64,000 bases of DNA from an uncultured Gemmatimonadales bacterium (lineage in GTDB: Bacteria; Gemmatimonadota; Gemmatimonadetes; Gemmatimonadales; GWC2-71-9): assembly GCA_963825055.1 (NCBI GenBank), contig CAWGSK010000008.1, forward strand, positions 32,001-96,000. The letters run 5' to 3'. A program made the translations under genes and the position numbers. A model generated the notes under the pieces. The model saw only the letters and a list, made by a program, of their open reading frames with translations, was not told where the DNA came from and did no database searches. Positions 29,769 through 36,399 of this stretch are shown here, one piece after another; the stretch's first letter is position 1, and every line of letters begins with the position of its first letter.

Positions 29769-31316
29769 TCAGTGAACGGCGTACACCACCGCCCGACCCA
29801 GCACTTCCCGCAGCGCCGCGGCAAACTCCGCCAGCGTCGCGGGCTTCTTGAGCGTCTTCACGATGCCGGCTCCCTCCAGTCGCTGTTCCGGCAGCTGGGC
29901 CAGGTGGCCGGTCAGCAGGATGACCGGCGCCGTATTGCCGAGGGCGCGGAGCCGCTCGGCAAGCTCGACGCCGGTGGTGCCGGGCATCGAGTAGTCGGTG
30001 ATGATGGCGGAGAAGCTGTTGGGAGATTCGGTGAACCGGGCGAGGGCCTCGTCCGGTCCGTTCGCCGTGGTGACGAGGTAACCGAGGGTCTCCACCCGGC
30101 GGCGCCCGACCCGCACGAGGGAGGGCTCGTCGTCCACGTACAGCAGGCGCTCGCCCTGGCCGGTGGGGAGCGCGTTCGAGAGCGGCGGTGCCTCGTCCTC
30201 GCTGTGCTCCAGCGCGGGGAAGTAGCACCGGACCATGGTGCCTTCCCCCGGTTCACTTTCCACGGACACGGCGCCCTCGTGATCCCGCAGGATCCCGTGG
30301 ACCATGGACAGTCCCAGGCCGCTGCCTTCGCCCGGCCCTTTCGTGGTGAAGAAGGGCTCGAAGGCCCGCTGCCGGGTCCGCTCGTCCATGCCGGCGCCGG
30401 TATCCTGGACCGTCATCACCAGGTACGGGCCCTCGTGGAGCGAGGGGTTGGCCCGGACCGCGCTGTCAGTCATGTAAGCCGGCGTGAGGCCGATGGCCAG
30501 GGTTCCGCCGTCCGCCATGGCGTGGGCGGCGTTCGTGGCGAGGTTCATCAGGACCTGCTCGACCGCGGTGGTGTCCGCCATGACCCGGCTGGCCCCTGAG
30601 GCCAGGTTGACCTCGATGCTGATTTCGGCGGGGAGCGTGGCGCGCAGGAGGCCGGCGGTATCCCGCAGGACCGCCGCCAGGTCGGTGGGAAGCTGGCGGC
30701 TGACCTGGCGCCGGCTGAACCGGAGGATCCGGTCTACCAGCGTCCGCCCGCGGGTGGCCGCGTTGAGGACCTGCTGCAGGTCAGAAACGGCCTGCGGGTT
30801 GTCATCCAGACCGCGTACCACGAGTTCGGTGTATCCGATGATGCCCGCGAGGAGGTTGTTGAAGTCGTGCGCGATGCCACCCGCCAGGGTGCCGATGGCC
30901 TCCATCTTCTGGGCCTGCCGCAGCATTTCCTGCAGGCGGTCCCGCTCCTCCTCCGCAGCCTTCCGCGCGCTGATGTCGACGATGGAGCTGAGGACAAAGA
31001 GGCCCTCATCGGTCCTGACCGGCGTGAGCCCGATCTCGATGGGTACCTCGGTGCCGTCCTTGCGGCGACCATGGAGTTCGCGCCCCACCCCGAGCTTGAG
31101 CGGCTGGGGATCCTGGAGGTAGGCCTCCAGCTGACCGGGGTGCTTGCCATGCATGTTGAGGGGAACGAGCAGGTTTACCGGCTGTCCAATCAGCTCTTGA
31201 CGATCGTAACCGAACAGCCGTTCGACTTCCCGGTTGACGAGAACGATGGTCCCGGAGGCGTCCACCATGACGAGGCCGCTGGGTGAGTGCTCAACCGCAG
31301 CCCGAAGGCGTTCCAC
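29769..31316 (-). CDS. PAS hybrid sensor histidine kinase / response regulator
   Basis: PAS, QKMEAIGTLAGGIAHDFNN, NLATNA, DTGAGM, EPFFTTK, GLGL and C-terminal REC (VDDE, TDYSMP, KP). Confidence 0.93.
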   Translation of the reverse strand: MERLRAAVEHSPSGLVMVDASGTIVLVNREVERLFGYDRQELIGQPVNLLVPLNMHGKHPGQLEAYLQDPQPLKLGVGRELHGRRKDGTEVPIEIGLTPVRTDEGLFVLSSIVDISARKAAEEERDRLQEMLRQAQKMEAIGTLAGGIAHDFNNLLAGIIGYTELVVRGLDDNPQAVSDLQQVLNAATRGRTLVDRILRFSRRQVSRQLPTDLAAVLRDTAGLLRATLPAEISIEVNLASGASRVMADTTAVEQVLMNLATNAAHAMADGGTLAIGLTPAYMTDSAVRANPSLHEGPYLVMTVQDTGAGMDERTRQRAFEPFFTTKGPGEGSGLGLSMVHGILRDHEGAVSVESEPGEGTMVRCYFPALEHSEDEAPPLSNALPTGQGERLLYVDDEPSLVRVGRRRVETLGYLVTTANGPDEALARFTESPNSFSAIITDYSMPGTTGVELAERLRALGNTAPVILLTGHLAQLPEQRLEGAGIVKTLKKPATLAEFAAALREVLGRAVVYAVH

Positions 31317-31432
31317 TGTATCAGGGAAGATTCAGGAGTGAGGCGCCCCGGAGCCGGGGCGCAGGGACCGCTGGCATCGGAGAAATGTGGGGCAGGGAAC
31401 GGGTGCGGGATGTGACGGGGGTCACGGGGGGA

Positions 31433-31523
31433 GGGAGTAGGGAGTAGGGAGTAGGGGGACGAGGTCACGGAGGGACGCCTATTCCCTATTCCCTATTCCC
31501 TACTCCCTGCTCCCCGTTCCCTG
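31433..31523. repeat. Inverted heptamer arrays (GGGAGTA / CCTA(T/C)TC)
   Basis: 3 forward units and about 6 reverse units; the reverse arm overlaps the CMD stop codon. Confidence 0.8.
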
Positions 31524-31856
31524 CAGTTCCTCCAGCCGCTCCATCGCCCGCCTCAAATGCGGGACCACGATACTCCCACCCACGATCAGCGACACGCTGA
31601 AGATCTCCATGAGCTGGTCCATGGTGACCCCTTCCTCGTGGCAGCGGATGACGTGGTACGTGATGCAGTCGTCGCAGCGGAGGACCATGCTGGCCGCGAG
31701 GCCCAGCATTTCCTTGGTGCGGGTATCGAGCGCGCCGTTTTCGTAGGTCCGCCCGTCCAGGGCAAAGAAACGGTTCACCGTGAGGTTGCCCGCGGCGAAG
31801 ATGCGCTCGTTCATGCGCTCGCGGAAGGCGTTGAAGTCGGCGATGGACTCGGACAT
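31500..31856 (-). CDS. Carboxymuconolactone decarboxylase / AhpD-like protein
   Basis: GALDTRTKEMLGL..SMVLRCDDCITYH motif. Confidence 0.88.
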   Translation of the reverse strand: MSESIADFNAFRERMNERIFAAGNLTVNRFFALDGRTYENGALDTRTKEMLGLAASMVLRCDDCITYHVIRCHEEGVTMDQLMEIFSVSLIVGGSIVVPHLRRAMERLEELQGTGSRE

Positions 31857-31908
31857 GCGGGGCCCGTGGAGAGGGGGATCTGGAAAGCGTGAAAGGTAAA
31901 AGGTAAAA

Positions 31909-32299
31909 GACCTCACCCCCCAGCCCCCTCTCCAAGTCGTGTGTGGAGAGGGCGAGGGCACTTCAGTCACGGATCTCTGACCGTCCTGACCGCCCTGTCC
32001 GTCCTGACCGCGCTGTTTGACCTCACCCCCCGGCCCCCTCTCCATGAATGGAGAGGGGGGAGGAGAATCTGGCTATTTCTGATCGGCCTCCTCACGTCGC
32101 ATTCCATCCGCGTGCTGACCGCACCCCCCGGCCCCTGACCTCACCCCCCAGCCCCCTCTCCATGAATGGAGAGGGGGAGAGGAGAATCTGGCTATTTCTG
32201 ATCGGCCTCCTCACGTCGCATTCCATCCGCGGTGCTGACCGCACCCCCCGGCCCCTGACCTCACCCCCCAGCCCCCTCTCCATGAATGGAGAGGGGGAG
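31909..32299 (+). repeat. Left REP-like array: 4 copies of GACCTCACCCCCCRGCCCCCTCTCCA-loop-TGGAGAGGGGG
   Basis: Copies start at 31909, 32019, 32137 and 32257; 32019-32136 and 32137-32256 form a ~119-bp tandem duplication. Confidence 0.92.
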
Positions 32300-32409
32300 C
32301 CGCTCTCTGCAGGAGCAGGGCTCGGATTGCGGATTCCTGGTCCTGCAATGCTGGATGGCGATCGTACCTTGGCCGTGTGCGGATCACCGGACATCAACGG
32401 CTCCGAGCG

Positions 32410-32766
32410 ATGAAGGCGGCACTGGCAAAGTGCTTCCGCCGTCAGCAGACGGAGTCAGAGCGAAAGGCGTGGGGGTTGCTCAGGAACCGCCGGATGTTGG
32501 GACTCAAGTTCCGACGGCAGCAGGTAATCGGCGGGTTCGTGGTCGACTTCTATTGCCCGGCCTTGAGGTTGGTACTGGAAATCGACGGCGAGGTTCACGG
32601 CACCATTGAACAGCAGACGTACGACTTGACCAGAACGGAATACCTCCAGTCGCGGGATGTGAAGGTGTTCAGGATTTCGAACTCGGAAGTCACCCATGAA
32701 TTGCTACGACAACGCCTCCTGAGCGAGTTCCCCCTCTCCATTCATGGAGAGGGGGACAGGGGGTGA
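32410..32766 (+). CDS. DUF559 (Vsr-like, PD-(D/E)xK fold) endonuclease-domain protein
   Basis: T.SE..W..LR.R...KFRRQ..IG.FVVDFYC..L.LVLEIDG..H...D..R...L......R..N motif; alternative GTG start at 32377; the C-terminus reads into the first right-hand repeat. Confidence 0.88.
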   Translation: MKAALAKCFRRQQTESERKAWGLLRNRRMLGLKFRRQQVIGGFVVDFYCPALRLVLEIDGEVHGTIEQQTYDLTRTEYLQSRDVKVFRISNSEVTHELLRQRLLSEFPLSIHGEGDRG

Positions 32767-33239
32767 GGTCTGGCGTCTGGTAGTTGCTGCGCGGCGAACT
32801 GGCCTGCGCGTTCCCCCTCTCCATTCATGGAGAGGGGGACAGGGGGTGAGGTCGAGAATGGCGTGTGCGATGAAGCTCCCCTCTCCAGGCATGGAGAGGG
32901 GGACAGGGGGTGAGGTCGCGGCAGGCGGTCAGACGGTCAGGCGGGCAGGCGGTCGGTTTCGGACTTGCAAAGGCGCTCGATCCCGGGTGAGAAGATCCCT
33001 CGCTGGATGCTCGGGATGACACTCGGGACATTGCGTTCCCCCTCTCCAGACATGGAGAGGGGGACAGGGGGTGAGGTCTGGCGTCTGGTAGCTACTGCGC
33101 GGCGAACTAGCCTGTGCGTTCCCCCTCTCCATACATGGAGAGGGGGACAGGGGGTGAGGTCAGGCCAGGGCGGCCAGGGCGGGAGCTCGAGTGACGTTCC
33201 CCCTCTCCAGACATGGAGAGGGGGACAGGGGGTGAGGTC
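32727..33239 (-). repeat. Right REP-like array: 6 copies of TTCCCCCTCTCCA-N4-TGGAGAGGGGGACAGGGGGTGAGGTC, inverted relative to the left array
   Basis: Copies end at 32770, 32853, 32917, 33078, 33161 and 33239. Confidence 0.93.
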
Positions 33240-34789
33240 TATCTTCCTGCCCCCTCCACGATCGTCTTGTAACTCTCCGGATTCCACTTCGGCCGGGCAG
33301 CGGCGTTCGCCACGTCCTGGCCCAGGTAGAACAGCAGCTGCACGATCCGGGATTCCTTCTCCGCGTCGATCTTGTCCGGGCTGTCGCTGACGCGATGGTA
33401 GTCCTCGTGCACCCCGTTGAAGAAGAAGAGGATGGGGATGCCCTTCCGCGCGAAGTTGTAGTGGTCGCTCCGGAAGTAGAATCGCTCCTCGGGCCACTTG
33501 TCGTCGATGGCGGTCATGTGGAGCTCCGGGTGCTGCGCGTTGACCCGGTTCAGGGTCGCGCCCAGGTCCGAGTGCTCCTTGCCGATGGCGACGATGGTGT
33601 CCTTCCAGTTGCGCCCGATCATGTCGAGGTTGATGTCGGCCACGATCTGGCCCACCGGCACGGTCGGGTGCTCGCTGAACCATGAGCTGCCCCAGAGCCC
33701 CTTCTCCTCGCCGCTCACCGTAATGAAGATGAGCGACCGCTTCGGCCGTGCGCCGGGCCGGCTGAAGGCCTCGGCCAACTCGATCACGCCGACCGTACCG
33801 GAGGCGTCATCATCTGCGCCGTTGTTGATGCTGTCCGCCTGGCCGGCAACGCTCCGGATCCCGATGTGATCCATGTGCGCGGAAAAGACGACGTATTCGT
33901 TCCGGAGCCTGGGATCGGTGCCCTCGAGAATGCCGATCGTGTTCGGGGCGGACATCGCCTCCTGCGATTCGCGGATGTCCATCGCGACGGTCACGCCGGG
34001 AAGCGACTTCGCGATGCCGGTGCCCGAGGCACGTACTCCCGCCAGGTCGACCGTGCTCCCAAGGGCGGGGGCCAGGGTGGCGTCATGTACCTCGACTGCC
34101 GGGATCTGCGGGCGGCCGCTCTCCCGGCCAACACGCGAGATGATCGCCGGCGCCGCACTGATCATGTCCTGCCACTCCTTCTGATTCGCGTTCGACGCGG
34201 CCACAACGCCGAGCGGCGTGGCACCGCTCTCCCGCAGGACGGCGAGGGCGCGGTTGTACTGGCCCCGCGCCTGCCGCCCGCCCTCCGAGTAATCCAGCAC
34301 AACGAGGACCACGTGACCTTCGACGTCCTTCGCCCCGACCTGGACCTTCGACAGGTCGCCCGCGAGGAGGAGGATGGGACCCTGGATCCTGCCTTCGGTA
34401 CCAACGGCTCCCATCAACCGGGCATTGCTGCGGAAGGAGAGCCGCGCCGGCTTGGCGCCCTGGATGCTGATGGAGGAGGCCCCGAGATCGATCCGCCGCA
34501 TCTGCAGCGGATAGCGCTGGAACCAGGTGCCGCTCTCTCCGCCCGGCTTGAGGCCGAAGCTCTTGAACTGGTCGGCCACGTACTGCGCGGTCAGGTCGAG
34601 GCCACGGCTCGGCGTGTCCCGCCCACCCATGGAATCATCGGCGATGACACGGATGCGACTGTCGATGTCGGCCGCGGTAATGGTGGCCGCCGCCTCGGCC
34701 AGCGCGCTGGCTTTGGCCGGTGTGGGCGCCTGGGCAGCCAGCCCGGTGGAGACAGTGAACAGCAACAGCAGCGATACGCTGGATTTCAT
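33239..34789 (-). CDS. M28 family aminopeptidase (PA-domain insert)
   Basis: Signal peptide; SAHMDH, NGADDDASG, SGEEKGLWGS, NLDMIG, RSDHYNF and EDYH. Confidence 0.92.
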   Translation of the reverse strand: MKSSVSLLLLFTVSTGLAAQAPTPAKASALAEAAATITAADIDSRIRVIADDSMGGRDTPSRGLDLTAQYVADQFKSFGLKPGGESGTWFQRYPLQMRRIDLGASSISIQGAKPARLSFRSNARLMGAVGTEGRIQGPILLLAGDLSKVQVGAKDVEGHVVLVVLDYSEGGRQARGQYNRALAVLRESGATPLGVVAASNANQKEWQDMISAAPAIISRVGRESGRPQIPAVEVHDATLAPALGSTVDLAGVRASGTGIAKSLPGVTVAMDIRESQEAMSAPNTIGILEGTDPRLRNEYVVFSAHMDHIGIRSVAGQADSINNGADDDASGTVGVIELAEAFSRPGARPKRSLIFITVSGEEKGLWGSSWFSEHPTVPVGQIVADINLDMIGRNWKDTIVAIGKEHSDLGATLNRVNAQHPELHMTAIDDKWPEERFYFRSDHYNFARKGIPILFFFNGVHEDYHRVSDSPDKIDAEKESRIVQLLFYLGQDVANAAARPKWNPESYKTIVEGAGR

Positions 34790-35001: not shown

Positions 35002-36399
35002 TCATGGCTTCCTCCGCCTCAACTGCGGATCGCCGGTTGCCCGTCCGCTGCTCGGTTCCGCTCGCCTGGGCTCCGCCCGCTGGGGTTCGGCCCGTCGTGG
35101 CTCGGCCCTCTGGGGCTCGGCGCGGCGGGGCTCCGCCCTCTGGGGTTCTGCCCGCCGTGGTTCCGCTCGCTGCGGCTCGGCGCGACGCGGCTCAGCACGT
35201 TGCGGCTCGGCCCGTCGAGGCTCGGCCTGACTGGGGTCGGCGCGCTGGGGCTCGGCACGTCTCGGCTCAGCACTCTGCGGCTCCGCCCGCTGGGGCTCGG
35301 CGCGTCTCGGTTCGGCACTCTGCGGCTCCGCCCGCTGGGGCTCGGCGCGTCTCGGCTCGGCACTCCGGGGCTCCGCCCGCTGGGGTTCGGCCCGGCGCGG
35401 CTCGGCCTGTCCAGGCGCCGCGCGGCGATCCGGCGCGGCCCTGTTGTCTGGCGCCGTGCGCCGGTTACCACCGGCCGCGGCTCCCGGGTTTTCACCCACC
35501 CGACGGCGCACGTCGGTCGGAAGCGGCACGCTGCCCCGTCCGCCGAGGTCCCGGCTGGTGCGTGAGCGGTCACGCTCGGTGATGCGGTCGTCCGCCGGAC
35601 GGTTCTTCACTCGCGAGATGTATGGCGTGTTCTTCCGCTCATAATCCCGGAAGATGTACCGCGGACGGAGCCGGGCAGGCCGGTTCACGACCACGCGGCG
35701 GGGGCCCCAGTACCGGTATGGGTAGTAGTAGTAATCGTCATAGATGACGATCCGGAACTTCGAGCACGAATACCGGTACGGGTCCCAATAGGGGTAGCTC
35801 GCGTACGTGTGGCAGTCGTAGCACAGGAAGCGCGGATAGTCGTAGTGCTTCTCGACGTAGTACGGGACGATGTCGTAGTCGTACTCGCCCGGCCCCACGA
35901 TGCGCGAAGCAAAATCGGTGAGTGCTTCGTAGGGGTCGCCGCGGACCCGGCCGTCGGCGATGAGGCGATAGTCCCAATGGTCGCCCCGGACGAAATCATC
36001 GTATCGGAACGGGTCGGGCGACGTGATGGCGAAGACGTAGCCGACACCGGGGTAGTCGTCGATGCTGAAGGCGCGGTTGTCACGGTCCAGCACCTCGAAG
36101 GTGCGGCCGCCCCGGGCGAAGTTGTCTTCCCAGGGATCGCGGGGGAATACCATGCGGATCCGGCCGTCCGTATCCACCCGCATCACGGTGATGTACCCGT
36201 CTTCCTGCGGCTCGACATACACCCTGGCACGGTCACCGCGCTGGTAGGCATCCGACTCGCGATCGGTCCAGATGGAAACGCGCGGACGCTCCGCAGAACC
36301 CATCCAGGCGGCAATGCTGGATTCCACCGCCGAGGCGGGGATTGCTGGGGGTGTCGAGGGTCCGGCAAGCAGGGCCAGGCCGAGAATGGGAGCGAACAT
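35002..36399 (-). CDS. Secreted DUF4384-like protein with CxxCH, Tyr-rich segment and pentapeptide-repeat tail
   Basis: GGAGGA RBS and signal peptide; YQRGD...DGYITV..VDTDGRIRMVFP (DUF4384-like); CYDCH. Confidence 0.75.
   Translation of the reverse strand: MFAPILGLALLAGPSTPPAIPASAVESSIAAWMGSAERPRVSIWTDRESDAYQRGDRARVYVEPQEDGYITVMRVDTDGRIRMVFPRDPWEDNFARGGRTFEVLDRDNRAFSIDDYPGVGYVFAITSPDPFRYDDFVRGDHWDYRLIADGRVRGDPYEALTDFASRIVGPGEYDYDIVPYYVEKHYDYPRFLCYDCHTYASYPYWDPYRYSCSKFRIVIYDDYYYYPYRYWGPRRVVVNRPARLRPRYIFRDYERKNTPYISRVKNRPADDRITERDRSRTSRDLGGRGSVPLPTDVRRRVGENPGAAAGGNRRTAPDNRAAPDRRAAPGQAEPRRAEPQRAEPRSAEPRRAEPQRAEPQSAEPRRAEPQRAEPQSAEPRRAEPQRADPSQAEPRRAEPQRAEPRRAEPQRAEPRRAEPQRAEPRRAEPQRAEPRRAEPQRAEPRRAEPSSGRATGDPQLRRRKP
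35047..35406 (-). repeat. Coding 15-bp tandem repeat, 24 x AEP(R/Q)(R/S)
   Basis: Counted from the translation; synonymous codon variation between units. Confidence 0.92.

Follow-up and report, generated by a model that had tools for sequence, protein, structure and literature searches.

A putative DUF559 nuclease gene and the ten structured repeats around it form a cassette inserted between two host genes in an uncultured Gemmatimonadales bacterium, and the enzyme probably recognizes and nicks these BoxC-type repeats, driving their local duplication and spread. The insertion is seen relative to related genomes, the repeats match a family described from Escherichia coli, repeat tail and stem covary as mirror images, the predicted catalytic residues of the enzyme are intact, and DUF559 genes are associated with such repeats in many other bacteria. 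Coordinates refer to the window, meaning the whole stretch of 64,000 nucleotides that was analysed.

Organization of the locus

The DUF559 gene has a CMD gene to its left and an M28 peptidase gene to its right and is flanked by ten repeat units, four on the left and six on the right, the right set being reversed in orientation and all tails pointing outward, away from the gene. This mirrored arrangement had been described in a sequence-only reading of the same DNA and was recovered here, as were the degenerate leftmost copy with its longer loop and the placement of the final codons and stop of the gene within the tail of the first right repeat. For the repeats, the strand given below is that of the G-rich strand, on which the hairpin is followed by the third strand, directed away from the gene.

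31500..31856, minus strand: host gene of the CMD family, left neighbour (Pfam)
31866..31878, plus strand: lone purine arm between the start of the CMD gene and left repeat 1, the remnant of a half-copy
31909..31954, minus strand: left triplex-motif repeat 1, a degenerate copy whose loop is 9 nt long
31977..32016, no strand: unrelated 9-mer tandem repeat within the left array; similar tract at 32918-32956
32019..32059, minus strand: left triplex-motif repeat 2
32117..32136, minus strand: 20-nt partial duplicate of tail and linker, immediately outside left repeat 3
32137..32177, minus strand: left triplex-motif repeat 3, inside a 118-120 bp tandem duplication
32237-32256: second partial duplicate of tail and linker, outside left repeat 4
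32257..32297, minus strand: left triplex-motif repeat 4, innermost
32377..32766, plus strand: DUF559 (YcjD/Vsr-like) nuclease gene (Pfam), with TGA 32764-32766 in right repeat 1
32730..32770, plus strand: right triplex-motif repeat 1, which codes for the DUF559 final codons and stop
32813..32853, plus strand: right triplex-motif repeat 2
32877..32917, plus strand: right triplex-motif repeat 3, with a 10-bp stem
32960..33022, no strand: unrelated dispersed hairpin repeat, GTCA-type, within the right array; 10 pattern matches genome-wide
33038..33078, plus strand: right triplex-motif repeat 4, opening a block duplicated from right repeats 1-2
33121..33161, plus strand: right triplex-motif repeat 5
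33199..33239, plus strand: right triplex-motif repeat 6, its final base common to the M28 stop codon
33239..34789, minus strand: host gene for peptidase M28, right neighbour (Pfam)

The 11-bp stem of the earlier description holds in general, with right repeat 3 as the exception. The left linkers are CAG or CGG and the right ones TGT; their side-specificity had been noted correctly for this locus but is not a rule of the family. Near-identical blocks occur on both sides (32018-32179 against 32136-32299 at 98% identity on the left; 127 nt at 32727 against 33035 at 94% on the right), so the ten copies are not independent, and much of the copy number, together with the side-specific linkers, is explained by large tandem duplications from one founder per side. 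A left/right code in the linkers was ruled out: in 29 tails-out pairs, which include a few duplicate rows, either side can carry the same triplets.

The repeat pattern is not a product of chance, since the reversed pattern had 0 matches across all 41 genomes searched and the folding of five strands from window repeats gave z-scores of -2.4 to -4.9. Contigs from public runs span the last left repeat, the gene and the first right repeat (487 nt, 0 differences) and both outer junctions; the best of these runs possibly represents the source sample itself. Joints in the public runs that skip the gene were set aside, as they have foreign letters between and may derive from other organisms. A promoter and terminator scan of the locus found neither, and Rfam gave sub-threshold matches only over 31300-33400, with none at the gathering score. 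Nearby, inverted GGGAGTA-type heptamer arrays (31426-31514; 31 such tracts genome-wide) overlap the CMD stop, and at 35002-35600 a minus-strand gene ends in a long tandem peptide repeat (AEPRR/AEPQR).

Counted genome-wide, the host has 15 repeat units, ten at the DUF559 locus, three on contig C35 and one each on contigs C12 and C13. The single copies at C12:680838 and C13:222 border the same duplicated aldo/keto-reductase-like segment, with differing upstream DNA; this may reflect either genuine duplication or faulty binning, assembly contamination being 6%. At C35:17890-19251, nonamer tracts and the GTCA-type hairpin are interleaved with triplex copies and there is no DUF559 gene. That such composites are shared by the window arrays and the gene-less C35 suggests that the repeats move as mosaics.

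Identity of the repeat

By sequence comparison, the repeat is the known BoxC/PIT/TM-ECO element rather than a new family. Its G-rich strand reads C-rich arm, loop, purine arm, three bases and third tract, and the third tract mirrors the purine arm except that T stands for the first A. The earlier note had likened tail and hairpin to the architecture of REP elements; the tail is not a GTAG-like REP tag, however, but the mirror-image third strand of a predicted purine-motif intrastrand triplex. In the nine intact window copies, 0 mismatches were found across 9-10 triads.

Tail and stem covary across lineages. Circularity was avoided by finding hairpins without the tail and then keeping those with a G-rich tail (371 arms, 159 with a G-rich tail, 129 unique; copies sharing descent do not count as independent). 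In 98/129 the mirror was perfect across 9 bases, against a permuted mean of 53.6 and maximum of 64. The arm AGAA was paired with the tail ATGA in 8/8 cases and the arm AGA with TGA or AGA in 75/87, and of 42 non-consensus arms, 19 had a tail closer to the arm's own mirror than to the consensus, 16 showed no difference and in 7 the consensus was the closer. The T was kept in the third strand in 139/158 copies. Mirror symmetry is useless for duplex pairing, which argues for selection on a triplex. The triplex detector requires a perfect stem and an A, and therefore misses TM-ECO 9 and all-G cyanobacterial variants, making the counts lower bounds.

The E. coli element shares the order of parts (C-rich arm, loop, G-rich arm, 3-nt loop and G-rich third strand, with T opposite A) and likewise occurs as dispersed singles and inverted pairs of patchy abundance and local instability (PMC4666352). 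Its motif forms a triple helix in vitro by CD and NMR, and PIT elements block DNA polymerase in vitro (PMC4666352); in the available text of the same study, Holder et al. 2015 state that the stable presence of the triplex in vivo is not supported. The window stems are longer (10-11 bp, against 9 bp in E. coli) and lack the E. coli mismatch. The window copies also frame a nuclease gene, whereas PMC4666352, in the part available, saw no link of the motif to mobility genes, and the words 'endonuclease' and 'DUF559' were not found in its main text. The CIR elements of Caulobacter were rejected as the identity of the repeat, since a review, as far as available, describes them as ~110-bp GANTC-bearing repeats, and the available portions of the literature examined on Geobacter multicopy families gave no link to the window repeat.

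The DUF559 nuclease

The window gene matched Pfam PF04480 (DUF559) with an E-value of 1.7e-28 and no other Pfam family, and it is the single DUF559 match in the host genome. The DUF559 assignment of the sequence-only reading therefore stands; its length of about 118 aa, from ATG 32410, is probably too short, because homologues share an 'ITG.Q' N-terminal stretch that points to a start at GTG 32377 (129 aa). Membership of the Vsr-like PD-(D/E)xK group was likewise upheld by the Pfam match and by a structure model (pLDDT 83.9) with Foldseek matches to 3hrl, 3r3p and 1vsr. Profile and model matches taken together included 3hrl, the homing endonuclease I-Bth0305I, PvuRts1I and Vsr.

The predicted catalytic residues are intact and the gene is under purifying selection. 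Residues E17, D46, E57, H63 and D72 (numbered from ATG 32410) are present in 144/144 alignment rows, the invariance of D46 being partly built in because it belonged to a search pattern, and dN/dS was 0.06-0.25 in 15 of 18 pairs, the remaining three being saturated. The closest characterized structural match is the EDxHD homing endonuclease I-Bth0305I, in which D196, H213 and D222 align with D46, H63 and D72 and are the residues mutated to inactivate that enzyme (PMC3239194). Unlike I-Bth0305I, the window protein lacks an N-terminal DNA-binding extension, is not associated with an intron or intein, and is encoded by a free-standing gene of 118-129 aa. Vsr and Caulobacter VsrA have the same fold, and VsrA is itself a DUF559 protein (PMC12907096); the window protein has no pairwise sequence similarity to E. 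coli Vsr.

At four other loci (L243, L246, L157 and L045) the DUF559 match lies within an open frame of 869-1694 aa or longer, possibly an in-frame insertion into a host gene. DUF559 genes have also been listed as enriched among predicted inversion targets, with an odds ratio of 14 (PMC9881135, available text).

Association of gene and repeat across genomes

The link between DUF559 and the repeat is strong and specific, and it recurs across many bacterial phyla. Enrichment of the repeat around homologues, as would be expected of a cognate enzyme, was found: the motif lay within 300 bp of the gene at 58 of the best 80 of at least 586 confirmed homologous loci, compared with 10/733 distal 330-bp windows and 0/1600 shuffled flanks. 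When the second loop was allowed up to 25 nt, 63 of these best 80 loci were positive, and 17 lacked even the long-loop motif. Among the 66 of them with full flanks, the motif was on both sides in 32 and tails-out in 24. An even phylum sample of 220 genomes gave the motif at 26/29 loci (retrieved from 42 matches, the window's own locus excluded).

In the family of a Caulobacteraceae genome, DUF559 was present in 50/61 genomes, mostly in several copies, and the motif was near 25/33 loci (30 of ~159 matches plus 3 further loci) versus 1/132 distal windows. The flanking repeats there are of a long-loop kind, in which a small hairpin separates the purine arm from the third strand, and most are tails-in. 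Genomes in this family sample carry up to seven divergent DUF559 paralogues each (L304-L332).

Specificity was assessed in five repeat-rich DUF559-positive genomes, where 5/5 DUF559 loci had the motif (5 of 8 matches scored). In the same genomes it was found at 0/25 four-helix-bundle loci (25 of 39 matches), 0/11 GIY-YIG loci (five frames >600 aa omitted of 16) and 0/6 PDDEXK_3 loci (one of 7 omitted), or 0/42 control small-gene loci pooled. In the host genome, the Y1 transposase matches sit on contigs that do not carry the repeat.

Within the host family (104 genomes) the presence of the repeat tracks that of DUF559, as the sequence-only reading had anticipated. The strict pattern occurred in 16/17 DUF559-positive and 20/87 DUF559-negative genomes, and five or more copies in 12/17 and 9/87 respectively; these are mostly draft assemblies, in which repeat-flanked genes may be unassembled, and p-values overstate the case because genomes and repeats are related by descent. 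The DUF559-positive G094 had no strict-pattern match, but a variant repeat flanks its gene. The persistence of repeats in the 20 gene-less genomes, 9 of them with at least five copies, argues against repeat spread by DUF559. In G169, G181 and G241 there were 27-31 repeats with no DUF559 gene detected. Families f2 (45 genomes) and f3 (3) had neither gene nor repeat, and in family f10 DUF559 was present in 7/9 genomes and adjoined by a different repeat variant. Nine gene-less opposite-strand pairs, chosen by eye among the matches listed, were all tails-out, like the cassette in the window clade.

The genes flanking DUF559 loci appear not to be conserved, 192 flank ORFs falling into 178 clusters by a crude longest-ORF test. 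On viral contigs the motif was near 3/30 DUF559 loci, or 12/30 with the long loop, which is no clear enrichment over distal windows (15/91) for that form. A set of 4-9 kb contigs from the viral collection (L096-L116, L122) shares ~1.3-2 kb upstream of DUF559 at 78-97% identity, and these may be host fragments rather than viruses. One cyanobacterial plasmid gene (L347:1080-1850) is flanked by many all-G repeat variants, unscored by the detector.

Repeat layout and protein phylogeny

A quick tree was built from 144 rows (137 different, 109 columns). The window protein fell in a clade of 43 rows (SH-aLRT 96) with hosts in Gemmatimonadota, Myxococcota, Fibrobacterota and others, where 36 layouts were tails-out, 4 mixed, 3 without the motif and 0 tails-in. 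Other DUF559 clades had inward, direct, doublet or long-loop layouts. The supposition that repeat variation follows protein phylogeny thus held for layout, which is clade-specific (55 changes on the tree against a shuffled mean of 80.3, a clustering inflated by near-copies).

ycjD in Escherichia coli

The E. coli gene ycjD (b1289) was confirmed as a DUF559 gene whose product has 38% identity to the window protein over 104 aa. The window protein scored 66.8 bits against an NCBIfam equivalog cut-off of 218, and is therefore a relative within the family rather than an orthologue. As in the window, the repeat adjoins the gene: ycjD lies 168 nt from TM-ECO 9, its stop codon is inside a BoxC copy and more copies follow downstream; unlike in the window, the repeats are on the 3' side only. 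In K-12 the hairpin containing the stop is degenerate, whereas in strain EC1 the end of ycjD is 12 nt longer, restoring a full tail-plus-hairpin copy. This matches a 12-nt insertion at ycjD that is recorded, in the available text, without explanation (PMC12817139).

The gene was found at one site in 3378/5426 E. coli genomes. In EDL933 the fabI-sapF site has the eef operon instead of ycjD, and this strain has 11 TM-ECO copies versus 23 in K-12, another case of repeats persisting where the gene is absent. BLAST places of the repeat numbered 10-23 in 25 rows with ycjD versus 3-12 in 14 rows without it, a comparison of little weight because it is confounded by phylogroup and counts BLAST places.

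Insertion site and mobility

An insertion between the CMD and M28 genes, proposed from the window alone, is borne out by relatives. Of 29 CMD loci retrieved from relatives, six had a co-oriented M28 gene upstream, and in five of these the M28-CMD gap was 34-148 bp and contained neither gene nor repeat, compared with 1386 bp in the window; the sixth had an unrelated ClpP-like gene in the gap. The relatives are all of other genera, so that the insertion junctions are not definable. The cassette is single-copy in its host genome, and its empty sites are known from other genera only.

Partial duplications lay outside the tail in 19/158 elements and inside in 4, a polarity test that is biased because inner flanks are often coding. 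Outward duplications fit a nick near the third strand, and equally polymerase stalling at the triplex without a nuclease.

A multicopy burst of near-identical copies was found in G061 only, with 17 DUF559 matches, intact cores 95-98% identical and a pN/pS of 1.8. Self-mobilization was rejected as its cause, as the copies lie inside an outer MITE with its own inverted ends and ~10-bp duplications centred on CTAG. The MITE also occurs as gene-less shells of 130-276 bp, and its ends may resemble those of the IS4 family. It has 109 end matches and variable cargo including the DUF559 cassette (loci L158-L182, L213-L242). In G061, six copies of DUF559 have lost their 5' part, one carries its right repeat in inverted orientation and one is fused behind a four-helix-bundle-like gene.

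Proposed mechanism and alternatives

If the enzyme acts on the repeat, the G-rich strand would fold into the hairpin and third strand when single-stranded, at a replication fork or in a repair gap, and DUF559 would cut at or near the third strand, the site of the kept T. Repair synthesis and template switching from the cut end would extend the arrays outward and would also seed gene-less single copies and doublets elsewhere. Movement of the DUF559 gene would be a rare event, brought about by recombination or homing from one repeat pair to another or by transport inside other elements. We infer the cut site, the single-stranded substrate and the homing into empty doublets. PD-(D/E)xK enzymes are not known to have a strand-transfer step, so the spreading of repeats must borrow host repair.

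The pairing may be a REPtron-like partnership in function, with a different enzyme class and DNA structure. Like the RAYT/TnpA-REP system, as far as it is described in the available texts (PMC8266576, PMC5581495, PMC3733652), it combines a low-copy small nuclease gene between inverted structured repeats, further occurrence of the repeats singly, as doublets and within mosaics, purifying selection and concentration of repeats near the gene; the window likewise holds a low-copy gene with inverted copies of a repeat on its two sides, the repeat being one found genome-wide. The distinction from RAYT/REP drawn in the earlier note is confirmed: the window enzyme has the PD-(D/E)xK Vsr fold, with no HUH Y1 domain or catalytic Tyr, and its units carry no GTAG or CGTC tag, their appendage being the mirror third strand.

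The main rival to nicking and spreading is a protective role on the same substrate, in which slippage or other enzymes spread the repeats and DUF559 is a domesticated caretaker, cognate but kept to resolve forks or gaps stalled at the triplex. We consider this unlikely. The association data fit it equally well, and it agrees with the usual 1-4 copies per genome in the host phylum, the strong purifying selection, the single site of ycjD and the polymerase block by PIT elements in vitro (PMC4666352, in part). A protective gene, however, need not sit inside the repeats, its flanking genes are not conserved by the crude ORF test above, and there are genomes rich in repeats in which the gene was not detected (G169, G181, G241).

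It is improbable that DUF559 is a very-short-patch (T:G mismatch) repair nuclease with the repeats as passengers or regulatory sequences. The Vsr fold invites this reading, as does Caulobacter VsrA, which contains DUF559 with similar residue spacing, is required for the SOS response of a cytosine-methyltransferase mutant and is proposed to be a mismatch-repair nuclease (PMC12907096); that paper, in its available text, calls the repair activity unconfirmed. The cytosine methyltransferases speak against it: no C5 methyltransferase was found in the host genome (assembly 87% complete), and one was near 0/142 DUF559 loci by tblastn (positive control 4/4). In the host family there was no significant association, a methyltransferase being present in 5/17 DUF559-positive versus 14/87 negative genomes (p 0.30), two methyltransferase-rich families (24/29 and 9/13) have no DUF559 match, and E. 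coli vsr-dcm is without the triplex motif by this detector.

It is decidedly improbable that the cassette moves whole as an autonomous transposon of the cut-and-paste or rolling-circle type, ending at the outermost repeats and using DUF559 as transposase. The inverted symmetry, the empty sites in relatives, the mixed host phyla within protein clades and the 5'-truncated G061 copies with a constant 3' end would be expected of such an element, but repeat orientation and number vary between clades, the near-identical copies of G061 are explained by the outer MITE with its 10-bp duplications, matches occur in only 25 plasmid-collection and 2 phage records, and at E. coli ycjD just one side bears repeats. 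Passive hitch-hiking, by which gene and repeat meet without functional link in intergenic hotspots of small repeats and genes, could draw on the two other repeat families inside the window arrays, the similar composites on C35 and the capture of a cassette by the G061 MITE, but is hardly probable at all given the 0/42 control loci and an association that spans many phyla with clade-specific repeat variants.

Nicking and spreading by DUF559 remains the preferred reading. A wider version of it, which we hold tentatively as one possibility, is that DUF559/YcjD proteins are triplex-recognizing endonucleases that would form with BoxC a cross-phylum selfish system, in which the triplex is the signal, a Vsr-type nick spreads the repeats and the gene homes into empty doublets.

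Significance

The BoxC repeats of E. coli have been on record since the 1990s. We know of no origin or partner enzyme for them, and of no demonstrated substrate for DUF559/YcjD. The DUF559-BoxC partnership is widespread and apparently unpublished: a search of mostly non-subscription literature, including the main text of PMC4666352 (whose list of flanking genes may name ycjD), gave no paper linking DUF559 to this repeat. Through the pairing, both questions can be put to the test in E. coli K-12, where the gene is present and 23 sites are mapped. If the partnership is true, RAYT would no longer be the sole enzyme class that sustains repeat families in bacteria, selection on a DNA triplex would have a biological explanation, and the DNA damage that Caulobacter VsrA causes could be read in another way.
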